This document shows positions 2,631 through 9,381 of a stretch of 9,381 bases of DNA, in pieces. The DNA is from a virus. Lineage: Duplodnaviria > Heunggongvirae > Uroviricota > Caudoviricetes. Made by a program: the position numbers and the translations under genes. The stretch lies in the IMG/VR virus record IMGVR_UViG_2534682159_000017. One strand, given 5' to 3'. The notes under the pieces are model-generated. The model made no database searches, was not told the origin of the DNA, and saw only the letters and a list, made by a program, of their open reading frames with translations. Numbering within the stretch: position 1 is the stretch's first letter; each line of letters begins with the position of its first letter.

Positions 2631-3191
2631 ATGGTTGCCGTAAATCATATACCACACCTTGTACACACACAAACGGCCTTTGTGTGGCGTTTTCTGGCCC
2701 TGAATATCGGAGAAAAAAACCAGTTGATCGCCAGTGTCGAAAATAGCTATGATTCCCGCGCACCTCATAAAACGGGTGCCGGGATTGGCGTCCTGGGCAA
2801 AACTGAAGCGCATAACACGCGCCCCGCGTGTTTTTTTGTGCCGCATAGTCACACCTTATCAATGGTGGGCTGTACGGGGGCGGAGCAATCCGCGCCGGTT
2901 TCTTCAGTGTCCGGTTACGCCAACCCTGTACAGTCCGCCACCAGCGAAATTGGCGTTTCCGGTGGCGGTTATCTTAACCACACTGAGGAGGCTGCCAACA
3001 TGGCTACTATCCCTACCCTTGTACATTCTCAAACCGCCTTTCTCTGGCGCTTTATCATCTTTGGCGCGTCAGAACATCAAATCATCCACGTAACCGCCTG
3101 GACGGAACGCGAAGCGCGTAACCGTTGCCCGTCCGGTTGTGTCGCTGTATTCGCCGCCCGTATTCGCCAGGGGGAAACCTATGCACAATAA
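2631..3191 (+). CDS. Hypothetical protein with internal tandem duplication (186 aa); first gene of the rightward operon
   Basis: Strong SD GAGGAG (2620-2625) 5 nt before the ATG; stop overlaps the next gene start (ATGCACAATAA). Two homologous segments (IPHLVHTQTAFVWRFLAL... and IPTLVHSQTAFLWRFIIF...) differ partly by synonymous third-position changes, which argues for coding. No family recognised. Confidence 0.5.
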   Translation: MVAVNHIPHLVHTQTAFVWRFLALNIGEKNQLIASVENSYDSRAPHKTGAGIGVLGKTEAHNTRPACFFVPHSHTLSMVGCTGAEQSAPVSSVSGYANPVQSATSEIGVSGGGYLNHTEEAANMATIPTLVHSQTAFLWRFIIFGASEHQIIHVTAWTEREARNRCPSGCVAVFAARIRQGETYAQ

Positions 3192-3876: not shown

Positions 3877-4176
3877 ATGAAACTTAAATATTCTGGCTTA
3901 ACTGCCAGTGGCAACACTCACCCTAAATTTACGCGCGGTGATATTTACCGCGACCAGTACGGCGGTACGGTAATGATTAAGGGCGTGGCGGGACGGTGCG
4001 TAACTTACCGCCGTGAAGGTTACGAATATGATTGCGTGATGCCTGTTTATCAGTTCCGGCGTGATTTTTCTCTGGTACAGACCGCGCCGCATAACGTGCC
4101 CACCAGCAACTCCAGGGCACGGGCAAACATCCAGAAGCTGAAAACCATGATTAACGGATTCAGGGGTAAAAAATGA
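3877..4176 (+). CDS. Hypothetical protein (99 aa)
   Basis: SD GGAGA (3863-3867) 9 nt before the ATG; stop overlaps the rep start as ATGA at 4173-4176. No recognisable family. Confidence 0.6.
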   Translation: MKLKYSGLTASGNTHPKFTRGDIYRDQYGGTVMIKGVAGRCVTYRREGYEYDCVMPVYQFRRDFSLVQTAPHNVPTSNSRARANIQKLKTMINGFRGKK

Positions 4177-5582
4177 AACTGGCACCGAACGTAAAACGAT
4201 TACCGAAAGATAAATACACCGATGCGATTATTTTTGCGGGTATTGATGCTCATTCATTCGCAGAGCATTACATCATTGCACAGGCCAAAAAAGCAGGCGA
4301 TCCAGTCCCTCCCGTTTATCTGGGGCGTTATCAGTTAAGCGAACTGGATAACCTCCAGATTGTTGATGATGGGCGATACAGGGCGACGGTGATACGCGCC
4401 GGAAATATTGAAGAGCCGCAGCTGTTAACCATCGCCACGAAACTGGCGATCGCCGGAGTCCAGGAGGCGCGGCTACTTTCTGAAAATTTCGAATTGCTGG
4501 AGGAATGGAGCGACCAGCTTCCACGGCTTAGGGAGGCATGGGAACGCGGGGAAAGCCTGGTCATGAAAAAAATCCCCCAGCGAAAAACCACGCTACCGAT
4601 GAGCGTTGGATCTACCGGATACGACACACAGCTTGATTACGTGGTAAAGGGGATTATTCCGGCATCGTCGCTATGCAGCATATACGGGGCGAGCGGTTCC
4701 TATAAATCATTCCTTGCCGGATCGTGGGCGTGTCACGTTTCCACGGGCCGCCAGTGGGGAGGCCGCAGGGTGGCGCATGGTGCGGTTCTCTATGTGGTTG
4801 GTGAAGGCGGTATCGGCGTTCCGCGTCGTGTAAAAGCCTGGGAGGTTGTGCACGGTGAGCAGGTGAAAAATCTGTATCTGGTAAACCGTCCCATCTTTCC
4901 GGCGGTCCCGCTTGATGTTGATGAAATGGTTATCGCTGCCCGTCAGGTGGAGCGGGAAACGGGTAAACCTGTACGCATGATTATTCTGGATACGCTGGCG
5001 CGTTGCTTTGGTGGGAATGATGAAAATGATTCCCGTGATATGGGGGCGTTTATCCGTGGTTGTGACGAACTGAAACGGCGCACAGGGGCCACGGTGCTGG
5101 TGGTTCACCATTCCGGCAAGGATGAGACGAAAGGCGCGCGCGGTTCCAGTGCATTTCGTGCTTCGCTGGATGCTGAATACCGGATACGCAGAGAGGACGC
5201 AGGCAGCGAAGCGCTGGTTATCTCATGCACCAAAATGAAGGACGCGGAGGAACTCAAAGAAGCCGCATATGACTTACGCGTGGTGGAGCTTTTTACCGAC
5301 GCTGACGGGGAGTTAATCACGTCGCTGGTGGTGGTGGATAAGCCGCGCCCTCCCGTTGAACTGGAGCGCATCGAGGAGGCAGGGAACAAGACGGAGAATC
5401 ACGCCGCGCTATGGCAGTGCATCAGAACACGAACAGCACACGGGGAGGCGTGCACTATCGCCCTTCTCCGCGACGATATGAAAAAGCTGGGGTATGAGAT
5501 GAAGCACTTCCGGCGCTGGCTGTACAAGCTGGAAAATGATGGCGTAATCGTTATTGATGGTGATGACGTGCGCCCGCTGTAA
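4173..5582 (+). CDS. Replication initiator/helicase-like ATPase, RepA-like AAA_25 / RecA-fold family
   Basis: 469-aa ORF. P-loop region IYGASGSYKSFLAG, Walker-B-like MIILDTLARCFGG, and the family-typical LVVHHSGKD motif. Iteron array begins 4 bp after the stop. SD AGGGG 6 nt before the ATG. No primase domain recognised in the N-terminal 150 aa. Confidence 0.88.
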   Translation: MKLAPNVKRLPKDKYTDAIIFAGIDAHSFAEHYIIAQAKKAGDPVPPVYLGRYQLSELDNLQIVDDGRYRATVIRAGNIEEPQLLTIATKLAIAGVQEARLLSENFELLEEWSDQLPRLREAWERGESLVMKKIPQRKTTLPMSVGSTGYDTQLDYVVKGIIPASSLCSIYGASGSYKSFLAGSWACHVSTGRQWGGRRVAHGAVLYVVGEGGIGVPRRVKAWEVVHGEQVKNLYLVNRPIFPAVPLDVDEMVIAARQVERETGKPVRMIILDTLARCFGGNDENDSRDMGAFIRGCDELKRRTGATVLVVHHSGKDETKGARGSSAFRASLDAEYRIRREDAGSEALVISCTKMKDAEELKEAAYDLRVVELFTDADGELITSLVVVDKPRPPVELERIEEAGNKTENHAALWQCIRTRTAHGEACTIALLRDDMKKLGYEMKHFRRWLYKLENDGVIVIDGDDVRPL

Positions 5583-5585
5583 AAA

Positions 5586-5784
5586 GTGGGGAGTAAAAGT
5601 GGGGAGAGTGGGGAATTTAACAAAATTGAAACATAATTACCCACTTTCCCACCTGTATACACCCAAAAAAGTGGGGAGTAAAAAACATATTGAAAAACAT
5701 AACGTTAGAATCACAAAAAAAAGAGGTGGGGAGACGGTGGGTAATTTCAAAAAGTGGGGAGCAAAAGTGGGGAGTAGTGGGGAA
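5586..5784. repeat. Iteron array / replication origin
   Basis: GTGGGGA(G/A) direct repeats start at 5586, 5599, 5609, 5671, 5726, 5754, 5767 and 5777, with a degenerate GGTGGGTA at 5737. They form two clusters flanking an AT-rich segment (about 5615-5725) that holds inverted partial copies (CCCACTT 5640-5646, CCCACC 5648-5653). Confidence 0.85.
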
Positions 5785-6041
5785 TGAACAGAAAAACCAG
5801 AGATAAGACAGCGCCAAAATATAAAGCGTTAGACATGACAGAGCACGCCTTAAAGGTGGCAATCAGAACGATAGACCGCCACGCGGGGGAAGGATACGCG
5901 AAGGAACATCCCGACCTGATAAGCGCATTCATGACCACAGCAGCGGCAAACTTTGCCACGCTGACAGAACGGGAGATTGCCGAAGCGGAACAGGTAACAA
6001 CCATCAACGTAAAAACCGGAGAGTCAGGCGATGATACATGA
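5784..6041 (+). CDS. Hypothetical protein (85 aa)
   Basis: ORF begins inside the last iteron and overlaps the following gene by 11 nt. No good SD spacing; plausible globular composition; no recognisable family. Confidence 0.35.
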   Translation: MNRKTRDKTAPKYKALDMTEHALKVAIRTIDRHAGEGYAKEHPDLISAFMTTAAANFATLTEREIAEAEQVTTINVKTGESGDDT

Positions 6042-6303
6042 CCGCATAGCGGAGGAACTCGAGGCGAAAGGATTTTACCGGAGGGCGGCGGCGCGATGGG
6101 GTGAAGTCATGCAGCTGGTGGAGACAGACAAGGAACGGCATCAGGTTACGATGCGACGGCTGGAATGTTCCAGGAAAGCACAGAGGCAACCGGAGCCGCC
6201 GGATAACTTCGGAGACCTGAGAAAGGCAGTAGATCGCACTTATGCTGAAATGGGTATAGATGGTGTAAGCGATGAAATATGGTGTAATTACCAGGACAGC
6301 TAA
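6031..6303 (+). CDS. PerC-family transcriptional regulator-like protein (90 aa)
   Basis: SD GGAG (6018-6021) 9 nt before the ATG. N-terminal IAEELEAKGFYRRAAARWGEVM matches the conserved LE-x-KG-x-RRAA-x-W signature I associate with PerC/Pch proteins. Followed by a terminator. Confidence 0.7.
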   Translation: MIHDRIAEELEAKGFYRRAAARWGEVMQLVETDKERHQVTMRRLECSRKAQRQPEPPDNFGDLRKAVDRTYAEMGIDGVSDEIWCNYQDS

Positions 6304-6309
6304 TCACAC

Positions 6310-6332
6310 AGCCGGAGCAATCCGGCTTTTTT
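6310..6332 (+). terminator. Rho-independent terminator
   Basis: Stem AGCCGGA (6310-6316), loop GCAA, stem TCCGGCT (6321-6327), then TTTTTT. Confidence 0.8.
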
Positions 6333-6406
6333 GCGGGTCCTCCTGGTGGGGTGGGCCTGAACACGGGGCGGGCGGGCGCGGAAAAAGGCGCATTTTTTGA
6401 TTTTTA
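6327..6406 (+). repeat. Conserved ~80-bp GC-rich box, copy A (TTTTTTGCGGGTCCTCCTGGTGGGGTGGGCCTGAACACGGGGCGGGCGG...GCATTTTTTGATTTT)
   Basis: Near-identical to 8865-8943 apart from 2-3 small indels or substitutions. Begins in the T-tract of the terminator. Ends in a second short GC hairpin (GCGC-loop-GCGC) plus a T-run. Confidence 0.9.
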
Positions 6407-6761
6407 TGGCACCATCACCACCACTATAAGTTATTGATATATTGAAGAATAAAAATTTTTAGTGTCGAATCAGGTTGTTTTTTGTTCATCACTGGATCGT
6501 TCCCGAAAGCATTTACAAAAAAACAGGCGCAAAAAAAGCGCCCCCGATTGCTGTTACCGGAGGCGCTTTTACACGACAAAGGAGTTTTTATCGCCAGGAT
6601 GACGAGTCTTAATATTGCTTCAATAGCAAAAATGCGTCAATGGCTTTGCCTCTCTGAGAATAATCAGAAAAATCATAATCTGATTTTATGGTAGAAAATG
6701 ATTTATCTATTACTTTTATCGATCAATAATGATGCCCGTTAATCAAAACGGAGGCGGATTT

Positions 6762-6956
6762 ATGCCAGAGAACAACACCAGAAAGCCGGATAAAAGTGCC
6801 ACGGTACACATAGACGCCGGAACTATGGAGAAGATCGAACGCTATCAGCAGTTCATCAAAGATAATCACCCGGGTATGCCAGTGCCCACGAAAGGACAAA
6901 TCACACGCAGCGCGGTTGAATACTGGTACAGGGCAACGTTAGGAGCCTGGCTATGA
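6762..6956 (+). CDS. Small protein with a possible ribbon-helix-helix-like fold, translationally coupled to the protease-capsid gene (64 aa from the ATG at 6762; the track ORF begins at 6729)
   Basis: SD GGAGG (6750-6754) 7 nt before the ATG at 6762. Stop overlaps the capsid-gene start (ATGA at 6953-6956). Fold call rests only on the pattern SATVHIDAGTMEKIERY...GQITRSAVEYWY and is weak. Confidence 0.5.
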   Translation: MPENNTRKPDKSATVHIDAGTMEKIERYQQFIKDNHPGMPVPTKGQITRSAVEYWYRATLGAWL

Positions 6957-8842
6957 AAACATGGTTTTCCATTAAGGCTATGGCAGATGTTGTACATGTG
7001 CGCATTTATGACGAGATCGGCGGGTACGGTGTAAAAGCATCGGCACTTACTGACGAGATCAACGCGTGTGGTAATGCGTCTGAAATCCATCTTCGCATCC
7101 ATTCACCTGGTGGCGACATCTTTGAAGGGCTGGCTATCTATAACGCTCTGAAAAATCATCCGGCAAAAAAAATCGTACACATTGAAGGCATGGCGGCTTC
7201 TATGGCGTCGTTTATTGCCATGTGTGGAGATCACATCGTTATGCCTGAAAACGCGATGATGATGATACATGCCCCCCGTGGTGTTACTGCCGGAGTGTCG
7301 GGCGACGTTCGCCGCTTTGCTGATCTGATGGACAAGCTGGGCGACACGATGGCAGAAACCTATGCCGGAAGAACGGGCAGGAGCAAACAGGAGATCACCT
7401 CAATGATGGAGGCGGAAACCTGGATGGATGGCAATGAGTGTAAGGCTAACGGCTTCGCAGATGAGGTTATACCCGCGATTACAGCAATGGCCCGAATTGA
7501 ATCAAAACGAATCGGAGATTTTTCAAATATGCCGGAAAAAATTAAAAGCATGATCAGCCAGAAAACTGGCAGTGGCGAACAGGAACGACTTAACGGAATC
7601 CGTGAATTGTTTGGCACCTTCAACGGAAGATATAACGACCTGGCTATAAGTTGTCTTGCGGATTCAGAATGTAGCGTTGAGAATGCACGCGAACGCCTTT
7701 TACTCGCTATGGGTAAAGAATCAACGCCAACAAACAAAACCACCCCCGCAAATCTTTACTACGCGTACACGGATAACGGCAATATAACTGGCGATGCCAT
7801 GCGTCAGGGGCTTAATGCGCGTCTTGGTCACGAACGGGCCGAACGCGGTAATCCTTACGCCATGATGAGTCTTTTCGATATGGCACAGGCATCATTAACC
7901 CATCGTGGTATAAGCACGGGCAGCTACAGCACACGCTCGCAGATAGTAAACGCGGCATTCACCCACAGCAGCAGCGATTTTACCGATATCCTTGCTGGTG
8001 GCGCTGAAAAATCAGTGCTTGCAGGCTGGGAGCACAGCGGCGAAACATTCCGCCAGTGGACGAAAAAAGGTTCCCTTTCAAACTTCCGGGAAGCCCGCCG
8101 CGTTGGTATGAATGGCTTCTCAACGTTAAACAAAGTGCCGGAAGGGGCAGAATATAAATACATCACCACCAGCGATCGCGGTGAACCCATCGCGCTGGCT
8201 ACTTACGGGAATATTTTCAGCATTACCCGCCAGGCGATAATCAATGATGACCTTGATCAGTTATCAACGGTGCCAATGGCTATGGGCCGTGCAGCATCAA
8301 GAACGGTGGGAAATCTGGTTAATCTGGTGCTTACAGGCAACGTAAAACTTTCTGACGGAATAACGCTGTTTGACAAAAAACACAGCAACCTGATTGAAGC
8401 AGGACTGACAACACCGGGACTTAGTGCAGCACGTCACCTGATGCGCACACAGAAGGACAAAAATGGCGAAGTGCTGAATATTGCGCCTAAATTCCTTTTA
8501 GTTCCGGCAGCACTGGAAGATCGCGCGTTGCAGATGATTAACTCAACCGCACCTTTCGGGGCTGATAAAAACAGCGGGATCTTTAACCCGTACCACAAGC
8601 TACTTGATATCATCGTCGATCCCCGCCTTGATGATATCAGCGAAAAACAATGGTACATGCTTTCCGCACAGGGAACGGACACAATCGAGGTGGCTTATCT
8701 TGATGGCAATGACGAGCCTTACCTTGAACAGCAGGAAGGTTTTATCGTTGACGGCGTGGCCTGGAAAGTCCGTATTGATGCAGGTGTGGCAGCTCTGGAT
8801 TATCGCGGTATGGTCAAATCAGGCGGTACCGATTCACTATGA
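6953..8842 (+). CDS. Fusion protein: ClpP-like (S14) prohead serine protease, N-terminal, joined to an HK97-fold phage major capsid protein, C-terminal
   Basis: 629-aa ORF; SD AGGAG (6941-6945) 7 nt before the ATG. ClpP active-site signatures GMAASMAS (Ser83, codon 7199-7201) and MMMIHAPRG (His106) match ClpP GQAASMG and MIHQP. The C-terminal ~350 aa have capsid-like composition and length. Terminator immediately downstream. Confidence 0.88.
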   Translation: MKTWFSIKAMADVVHVRIYDEIGGYGVKASALTDEINACGNASEIHLRIHSPGGDIFEGLAIYNALKNHPAKKIVHIEGMAASMASFIAMCGDHIVMPENAMMMIHAPRGVTAGVSGDVRRFADLMDKLGDTMAETYAGRTGRSKQEITSMMEAETWMDGNECKANGFADEVIPAITAMARIESKRIGDFSNMPEKIKSMISQKTGSGEQERLNGIRELFGTFNGRYNDLAISCLADSECSVENARERLLLAMGKESTPTNKTTPANLYYAYTDNGNITGDAMRQGLNARLGHERAERGNPYAMMSLFDMAQASLTHRGISTGSYSTRSQIVNAAFTHSSSDFTDILAGGAEKSVLAGWEHSGETFRQWTKKGSLSNFREARRVGMNGFSTLNKVPEGAEYKYITTSDRGEPIALATYGNIFSITRQAIINDDLDQLSTVPMAMGRAASRTVGNLVNLVLTGNVKLSDGITLFDKKHSNLIEAGLTTPGLSAARHLMRTQKDKNGEVLNIAPKFLLVPAALEDRALQMINSTAPFGADKNSGIFNPYHKLLDIIVDPRLDDISEKQWYMLSAQGTDTIEVAYLDGNDEPYLEQQEGFIVDGVAWKVRIDAGVAALDYRGMVKSGGTDSL

Positions 8843-8846
8843 CAAC

Positions 8847-8870
8847 AAGGCGGCACCAGCCGCCTTTTTT
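8847..8870 (+). terminator. Rho-independent terminator
   Basis: Stem AAGGCGGC (8847-8854), loop ACCA, stem GCCGCCTT (8859-8866), T-run 8865-8870; 5 bp after the capsid stop. Confidence 0.8.
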
Positions 8871-8943
8871 GCGGGTCCTCCTGGTGGGGTGGGCCTGAAC
8901 ACGGGGCGGGCGGCGCGGAAAAAAACGCATTTTTTTGATTTTA
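8865..8943 (+). repeat. Conserved ~80-bp GC-rich box, copy B
   Basis: Direct repeat of 6327-6406, in the same position relative to a terminator. Confidence 0.9.
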
Positions 8944-9099
8944 TCGTCATCATCATCATGTTCGTAAGTGATTGTTTTTAATTGCTTTGATGTAAAAAAG
9001 ATGATGAAGAAGGTTGTTTTTTGTTCGACATCTTTTAGCGTGACAGATTCTTTACAAAAAATCTGAGCTTGTTTTCTTCACCAGCGCGATGGGGGCACA

Positions 9100-9381
9100 A
9101 TGACAGAAGCCGAAATACTGGGATTAATCCGCCGCGTCGCCGGAATCAGCCAGCAGGTTGACGAACAGGCCACACAGCCGGACAGCATGACCGCAGATAA
9201 TTATGTGCGTGTAGTGGTGGAGGTGATGCGCCGTGATGGTATAGAACTTAATGGCGTTGATATGCGCGACATACGGATCCGCGTTCTTGAAATGCTGGCC
9301 TACAATCGCCGTGTAGAGATGTACAGGGAGAAAGAGAAAATTACGTACAACTGGAAGAAGCCGGAGCGGTTACGGCGGTAA
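9100..9381 (+). CDS. Hypothetical protein (93 aa), first gene after the capsid gene; possibly a head-completion or connector-type protein
   Basis: SD GGGGG 5 nt before the ATG; complete ORF with stop TAA at 9379-9381. Functional guess is from position in the morphogenesis module only. Confidence 0.55.
   Translation: MTEAEILGLIRRVAGISQQVDEQATQPDSMTADNYVRVVVEVMRRDGIELNGVDMRDIRIRVLEMLAYNRRVEMYREKEKITYNWKKPERLRR

Follow-up and report, generated by a model that had tools for sequence, protein, structure and literature searches.

The stretch of DNA analysed here (9,381 nt, the window) raises the question of why a phage satellite should carry a gene from a family of virulence regulators, and of what its product would act on. 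The sequence-only reading of the locus had placed a PerC-family gene at 6031-6303, between the replication origin and the capsid module of a satellite, and had proposed that it either activates the late genes of the island, from promoters with poor -10 elements, or cross-talks with host virulence regulation. If PchE-type proteins did control satellite late genes, a regulatory step still missing for Gram-negative PICIs would be filled in, and the presence of PerC-family virulence regulators on mobile elements would have an explanation. The description of the setting has held up: the gene lies after the iterons of the origin (5581-5793) and before a capsid fusion gene (6953-8842), in an island of the EcCI042/EcCICFT073 PICI type. 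As for function, the reading that we favor, with a probability of roughly 0.55, is that the protein, PchE, is an accessory, trans-acting modulator of silenced promoters, encoded by a moron-like satellite gene, and not a dedicated activator of capsid genes.

The open reading frame is a genuine, conserved gene. It starts with an ATG, its called bounds are exactly 6031..6303 on the plus strand, and a ribosome-binding site that can be read in the sequence (GGAGAG, 6018..6023, plus strand) precedes the start codon by 7 nt. The 90-aa product aligns through residues 1-89 with positions 1-89 of the 90 of Pfam PF06069 (PerC), at E=3.3e-43 and 146.3 bits against a gathering score of 22.6 bits, so that the family membership claimed for it passes the HMM check; as profile statistics go, the match is far beyond chance. 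It also matches phrog_994 (E=1e-45), and at a near-identical locus in E. coli JNE141411 (99.9% DNA identity) RefSeq labels the protein 'PerC family transcriptional regulator' (WP_000581021.1). All the marks of the family are found in it, namely the N-terminal signature AE.LE..G[FL][YW]RRAA.RW (residues 7-23), a cysteine near position 46 (Cys46, the only conserved one of its two cysteines) and the MG[IL] motif near 75 (MGI at 74-76). In an alignment of 55 PerC sequences R17 and A19 are invariant, and A7, L10, E11, G14, R18, A20, R22, W23, C46 and G75 are at least 90% conserved. The product is identical to Sakai PchE (ECs_1588) at 84 of 90 residues, without gaps (93%), and by this identity it is a PchE-type ('group 3') PerC homologue and the orthologue of ECs_1588. 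Directly upstream, a small ORF matching phrog_1231 (85 aa, 5784..6041, plus strand) starts inside the iteron/origin region, and because its stop overlaps the start of pchE by 11 nt the two genes are probably co-transcribed and translationally coupled.

Could pchE simply be a hitch-hiking or decaying passenger, without a current function in the island? That the gene is optional in this island family, and that databases hold many truncated PerC fragments, would suit this idea, but we find it scarcely credible in view of the full-length and intact frame with its ribosome-binding site, the invariant R17 and A19 and nearly invariant R18, A20, R22, W23 and C46, the 90-96% conservation of pchE DNA over hundreds of genomes, and the measurable curli phenotype of a pchE deletion in O157 (PMC6265319).

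What kind of protein is it? The AlphaFold2 model obtained from the 55-sequence alignment (pLDDT 84) has five helices and contains neither a helix-turn-helix nor any other DNA-binding fold, which weighs against a classical activator of the capsid units. As modelled, the protein would thus have the features of the PerC family, whose members are small (~90-105 aa), helical and devoid of a recognisable DNA-binding domain. There is no solved structure for any PerC-family member, and a Foldseek search with the PchE model returned nothing significant. Still, ~45 residues at the N-terminus can be superposed on phage proteins of ~60 aa at 0.6-1.0 A, and on one annotated as ANR at 0.7 A. The ANR model NF033650 aligns its positions 9-54 (of 54) with residues 7-52 of PchE at 17.7 bits and E=0.002, below the curated cutoff of 32 bits, and seven of ten tested short Pfam-PerC proteins (57-62 aa) also score 18-27 bits on it. 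These similarities suggest that PerC and ANR may form one superfamily. They are also suggestive of PchE being a TPR/ANR-like adaptor domain with a C-terminal extension, with the ANR link lying below the membership threshold. A fold of this sort would favor modulation of nucleoprotein complexes or of other proteins over sequence-specific promoter activation. Six Enterobacterales proteins (P0068, P0078, P0108, P0110, P0124 and P0137) score 56-73 bits on the N-terminal ~55 positions of Pfam PerC and 21-27 bits on ANR, where the cutoff is 32. A search seeded with P0108, the most ANR-like of the short proteins, returned only P0108 itself. The matches of P0073 and P0133 in several stretches, at one point taken as a hint of a repeat protein, were discarded as low-complexity noise.

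The window represents a nearly complete island of 9.6 kb, which in E. coli JNE141411 is inserted in the lpf operon and in other strains occupies different sites. Its genes are, in order, a P4-type integrase, an AlpA-like HTH gene (1739-1945), the isrK and C4 RNAs with an icd-like ORF, a DUF4222/RgdR gene, a RepA helicase, the AAAAAGTGGGGAG iterons, the phrog_1231 ORF, the PerC gene, a small ORF, a fusion of a ClpP-like prohead protease with a major capsid protein (6953..8842, plus strand; Pfam CLP_protease and Phage_capsid_4) and an ORF of 93 aa. The small ORF (phrog_4934, plus strand) is listed from 6729, and its true start is probably 6762, behind a GGAGG ribosome-binding site, which gives 64 aa (6762..6956); its equivalent in the RM8082 island is a RefSeq CDS of 195 nt. 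The last ORF (9100..9381, plus strand) has no match in Pfam, NCBIfam or PDB, and is 84% identical to ECs_1599, the last ORF of Sp7. The same architecture is found in the island of E. coli 042, EcCI042, which was named together with EcCICFT073 by Fillol-Salom et al. (2018, PMC6092414). The island has the attributes of a Gram-negative PICI, with int, an AlpA-like HTH gene, RgdR/DUF4222, a replication gene with an iteron origin, a helper cos and a size of ~10 kb; by its gene content it is a phage satellite of the EcCI042/EcCICFT073 type. Portal, terminase, connector, tail and lysis genes are all absent from the island. With a capsid-protease fusion but without portal, terminase and connector genes, the island fits neither the canonical PICIs nor the cf-PICIs. 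A putative capsid protein (c1499) is encoded by EcCICFT073 as well, and deleting its gene had no phenotypic effect.

Two further regions of the island deserve mention in their own right. At 2747-2945 (plus strand) isrK (66 bits) and a C4 antisense RNA (77.6 bits) both exceed their Rfam gathering scores; repeats at 2648-2693 and 3008-3053 flank them, a weak match to a c4-a1b1 target adjoins, and an icd-like ORF is annotated in JNE141411 at the matching position. This region looks like an antisense immunity module of the P1/P7 type within a satellite. The DUF4222 ORF (3877-4176, plus strand) lies in the slot that Sp7 gives to RgdR (ECs_1581), which is known to regulate LEE/T3S and motility positively; the ORF is a second candidate for a host regulator here.

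The immediate surroundings of pchE tell much about how it travels. An intrinsic terminator, the hairpin AGCCGGAGCAATCCGGCT followed by a T-run (6310..6333, plus strand), comes directly after its stop codon and, as read from the sequence, closes both the pchE cassette and the replication operon; a second one, GGCGGCACCAGCCGCC with a T-run (8849..8870, plus strand), was recognised in alignment after the capsid gene. Near-identical hairpins to the first follow pchE and ECs_1589 in Sp7, the same hairpin stands behind an ssb remnant in EcCI042, and a variant stands behind ssb in RM8082. DNA homology between the window and Sp7 starts ~10 nt before the ATG of pchE and stops at the T-run of the terminator, with unrelated flanks. 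Likewise, 891 E. coli genomes match a query made of pchE and cos, and most of them align over pchE and the terminator only (query 1-302). Judged by these alignments, pchE and its own terminator make up a self-contained cassette that forms the 3' end of the replication operon and recombines independently of the DNA downstream. The hairpin AGCCGGAG(C/A)AATCCGGCT is found at 6310-6327 of the window, at 8550-8575 and 8905-8927 of L006, and near 8150 of L067; depending on the island, it closes a cassette of pchE, of ssb or of ECs_1589. The recombination joint coincides with it, and it has the look of a boundary at which modules are exchanged as cassettes.

Downstream of the terminator lies the DNA on which a dedicated activator would have to work. 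The regions flagged as promoters, 6406-6760 and 8944-9099, consist in large part of a duplicated cos region from a helper phage. The first cos-like block spans 6328..6495 (plus strand), with a cosN-like core, CACGGGGCGGGCGGGCGCGG, at 6362-6381, and was identified through its matches to phages: it is 95.8% identical to Stx phage 1720a-02, where it sits between the lysis genes and terS and where the identity includes the cosB side, 95.8% identical to phage CP-1639, and ~75% identical to the corresponding region of mEp460. The mEp460 record LR595868 starts exactly at the invariant core CACGGGGCGGG...GCGCGGAAAAA, which resembles the neighborhood of lambda cosN and is found verbatim in Sakai Sp4. 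The second block (8866..9030, plus strand) is a direct repeat of the first, placed after the capsid gene. From these matches we regard 6328-6495 as a packaging site of a helper phage, not a promoter, and the type of cos points to helpers with a lambda/Gifsy-2-type terminase. Two helper-type cos sites are a trait that the island shares with EcCICFT073, where both are functional (PMC6092414). The core CACGGGGCGGGCGG(G)CGCGG occurs in both blocks, and the two direct copies flank the unit formed by the small ORF and the capsid fusion.

What remains as promoter space for the capsid unit is a leader that by composition is AT-rich (6496..6761, plus strand, 35-40% GC). No plus-strand site of this leader region passes a consensus sigma-70 scan. 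A candidate weak sigma-70 promoter can nevertheless be read at 6702-6730, with a -35 TTTATC (6702-6707), a 17-nt spacer and a -10 AATAAT (6725-6730); its hexamers score 8/12, just under the threshold of the scanner. Its -10 matches the consensus at five of six positions, and RM8082 and E. coli 042 keep both hexamers in islands that have no PerC. The leader also has a strong, apparently bidirectional hairpin near 6540-6575. On its minus strand, 6515-6608 would form a long GC-rich hairpin with a U-run (-33 kcal/mol, z=-3.8), ahead of which is a promoter-like site (6640..6611, minus strand). This element, 99% conserved in EcCI042, may be a small RNA or a bidirectional terminator; Rfam gives weak matches only in this region (ctRNA_p42d, E=0.26; STnc130 on the plus strand, E=0.77).

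The most direct version of the proposal is that PchE, produced from the end of an AlpA-driven replication operon, activates or de-silences the promoters of the capsid unit (6496-6761) and of the last ORF (9031-9099). There are good reasons to consider it: pchE is the last gene ahead of a strong terminator, the leader downstream has the 35-40% GC typical of H-NS-bound DNA, the consensus scan finds no plus-strand promoter in the target region, PchA of the same family is a demonstrated anti-silencer, and throughout Enterobacterales the gene keeps its place behind the replication genes. We nonetheless consider it unlikely, above all when the inheritance of the supposed regulator is set against that of its target. 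No PerC ORF exists in any frame of EcCI042, and yet its terminator, cos, leader and small ORF are 97-99% identical to those of the window, as is the leader with its capsid unit; a six-frame profile search found PerC absent from the RM8082 sister island, which keeps the same layout (a variant of the terminator, cos, capsid unit), and from the SaT040 cf-PICI. The same leader and capsid DNA without PerC in EcCI042 and RM8082 means that the supposed target is inherited independently of the regulator. Among 5,426 complete E. coli genomes, the capsid unit is present in 143-151, and pchE is directly upstream of cos in 24. At the 60 best matches to the junction from RepA to the capsid gene, PerC is annotated at 20, and at the remaining 40 the slot is filled by ssb or is empty. 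The cassette is thus, as far as these genomes tell, facultative, sister islands having ssb, both genes or neither in the slot with the same cos-capsid DNA downstream, and pchE is not co-inherited with the promoter and the capsid module that it was supposed to serve. In the other direction, the pchE allele follows the phrog_1231 gene in 718 of the 1,458 genomes that have the latter.

Other observations weigh against a dedicated activator too. At 55 PerC loci from ~25 genera of Enterobacterales, primase and SSB genes are repeatedly found upstream, and what follows downstream is a varied set of genes, few of them structural. The proposed target DNA is to a large extent a helper cos site, and the conserved 8/12 candidate promoter, with its good -10, is present where PerC is not. 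In O157, pchE expression is low and steady, and drops more than six-fold on SOS induction (PMC6265319; PMC7369912), at odds with a switch for late genes. Also, AlpA-family proteins can act as processive antiterminators (PMC7969949, PMC9371919), a mechanism that would bypass the terminators without any need for PerC. Taken together, these results argue against PerC as a required, dedicated activator, while a modulatory effect would be compatible with them; where an island lacks PerC, another PerC homologue of the same genome could act in trans in its place.

A different possibility is that PchE acts on packaging or on the helper, for example at or near cos, where it might remove H-NS from the AT-rich cosB side and so give access to helper terminase or IHF, or by modulating helper prophage genes in a way that favors transfer. 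The idea draws on neighborhood: pchE lies 25 nt upstream of the first cos copy, pchA of Sakai Sp4, in a segment that is inverted there, comes at the end of the lysis cluster after holin, endolysin and Rz/Rz1 and adjoins a lambda-type cos, and on an IncF plasmid a gene for a 104-aa PerC homologue adjoins an Rz1 remnant. We find it very improbable. Adjacency of pchE and cos is rare, with 24 cases in the 5,426 genomes, and Sp7 lacks it, with ECs_1589 and the capsid genes coming next after pchE; in other genera no cos-like core is consistently near PerC. The interval between Rz and cos is the classic moron slot, that of lambda bor, and the presence of PerC homologues in it favors the reading as an accessory gene. 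The cos blocks, being ~96% identical to phage cos with cosB included, would need no redirecting factor of the Rpp type. Rpp, the known PICI packaging factor, is in any case unrelated: RppA has 144 aa and no relationship to PchE, and the paper describing Rpp does not mention PerC. By analogy with these other loci, the adjacency of pchE and cos looks like a shared insertion niche and not like functional coupling.

All PerC loci that we recovered are from Enterobacterales, and the family is narrow, with 99 representatives at E<1e-3 among 1.84 billion proteins. When the PchE product was searched by tblastn, plasmids gave 132 matches and 50,697 phage records gave two weak ones; isolated phages thus do not typically carry this subfamily. 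The consistent position of PerC right after primase/SSB in int-alpA-primase islands across genera fits a role in the life cycle at least as well as an accessory one.

We return to PchE as an accessory modulator, and to the targets that it may have. PchA activates LEE1 only through relief of silencing by H-NS, StpA and Hha, the sole demonstration of such anti-silencing within the PerC family, and Pch has no homology to known DNA-binding proteins (Fukui et al., 2016, PMC4764244). PchE, as a small, all-helical, TPR/ANR-like adaptor without a classical DNA-binding domain, would act in trans as PchA does, remodelling nucleoprotein complexes of the H-NS/StpA/Hha type or binding other regulators, and its targets would be AT-rich silenced promoters. 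A pure protein-adaptor model is unproven, because H-NS was not co-precipitated with PchA in the study of Fukui et al. (PMC4764244). The main effects would fall on host genes as they do for the 93%-identical PchE, with csgD and curli down, flhDC and flagella up, and LEE little changed. In published work, over-expression of pchE led to repression of csgD and curli and to higher expression of flagella (PMC6265319; PMC7369912), and the host phenotypes of PchE come mostly from over-expression on plasmids. The suggested cross-talk with the host is therefore sound in general, being documented for PerC homologues; as for its ler/LEE branch, the test suggested for it has in effect been made for PchE, and group-3 pch is credited with little effect on ler/LEE in what PMC6265319 and PMC11773190 cite from Iyoda (2004) and Porter (2005), and the passages on LEE in PMC6265319 and PMC7369912 say the same of the PerC homologues of groups 2 and 3. 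Using LEE1 fusions, Pick et al. (2025, PMC11773190) saw no effect of the PerC homologues of EcCIEDL933 and EcCICFT073, and repression of LEE1 by EcCIMP1_025.

One may go further back and suppose that a PerC/ANR-like module was at root a life-cycle factor of satellites or phages, an adaptor that at the end of the replication phase lifts H-NS-type silencing of their own AT-rich cos/late region or of helper genes. PerC and PchABC would then be later exaptations, and PchE would here tune the cos-flanked capsid unit without being strictly required for it. We offer this as a speculation, and a rather doubtful one.

Part of what we describe was known. Fillol-Salom et al. (2018, PMC6092414) reported alleles of PerC from PICIs of E. 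coli and treated them as accessory or virulence genes, PchE was listed among the genes of OI-51 (Flockhart et al., 2012, PMC3378721), and PerC-family regulators are common in Gram-negative PICIs (Pick et al., 2025, PMC11773190); the allele itself is known and annotated, and both its occurrence in PICIs and the absence of an effect on LEE have been published. The papers describing cf-PICIs, SatelliteFinder and chimeric particles make no mention of PerC or PchE, and contain no experiment on what PchE does in the life cycle of a satellite. What we add is modest: the view of PerC as a facultative cassette of gene plus terminator in EcCI042-type islands, the recognition that a duplicated cos site of a helper makes up most of the neighboring 'promoter' DNA, and a model whose TPR/ANR-like look would favor a protein or nucleoprotein adaptor over classical promoter binding.

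How does PchE compare with better known regulators? P4 Delta, P2 Ogr, lambda Q and AlpA resemble it in proposed role only, that of a small protein encoded ahead of morphogenetic genes. They share neither sequence nor fold with PchE, and the AlpA-like HTH gene of the island is a separate one; Ogr and Delta have a four-cysteine zinc motif. Closer in kind is ANR (AraC negative regulator, Aar), small and helical like PerC, with the short PerC proteins of 57-62 aa as intermediates between the two families; PerC differs by ~35 extra C-terminal residues (helices 4-5). In the summary given in PMC11773190, ANRs are described as binding AraC-type activators and H-NS. EcCIMP1_025, from the PICI EcCIMP1, is another PerC-family gene of an E. 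coli PICI in which the authors noted ANR-like similarity, and by their statement it shares ~40% identity with the PerC-like proteins that EcCIEDL933 and EcCICFT073 encode (Pick et al., 2025, PMC11773190). It differs from pchE in its strong repression of LEE1 in C. rodentium, in its position in the island, and in that its island has no capsid genes.

PerC from the EPEC plasmid pEAF and PchA/B/C from lambdoid prophages of EHEC belong to the same Pfam family, have the same N-terminal motif and are likewise carried by mobile elements. Plasmid PerC homologues are ~35-40% identical to the PchE of the window, and a plasmid-borne PerC of 104 aa (WP_001303878.1) and Sakai pchA have identical profile scores. 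Unlike the PchE group, with its little effect on LEE, group-1 Pch proteins (104 aa) are required for full expression of ler/LEE, which they achieve by countering H-NS; their genes come after prophage lysis genes and are SOS-induced, whereas SOS induction lowers the expression of pchE.

The nearest relative is the PchE of Sp7, an element also known as OI-51 and CP-933C (PMC3378721) and corresponding to the cf-PICI EcCIEDL933. It has the same length as the PchE of the window and the same place in a satellite, between the replication module and the capsid genes. The local order in Sp7 is RgdR, replication gene, ECs_1586, ssb, pchE, terminator, small ORF, capsid genes and last ORF, and ECs_1586, upstream of ssb and pchE, is 90% identical to the phrog_1231 ORF of the window. 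The phrog_4934 ORF of the window was considered as a relative of ECs_1589 and rejected, the two being unrelated despite the equivalent slot in Sp7. In the window a RepA helicase replaces the primase, and no ssb stands between the small ORF and pchE. Downstream, the window has a lambda-type cos and a single protease-capsid fusion, whereas Sp7 has ECs_1589 and a set of HK97-type capsid, portal and terminase genes. Through these differences pchE keeps its niche in the window, at the 3' end of a P4-integrase/AlpA satellite replication module and followed by a AGCCGGAG.AATCCGGC terminator.
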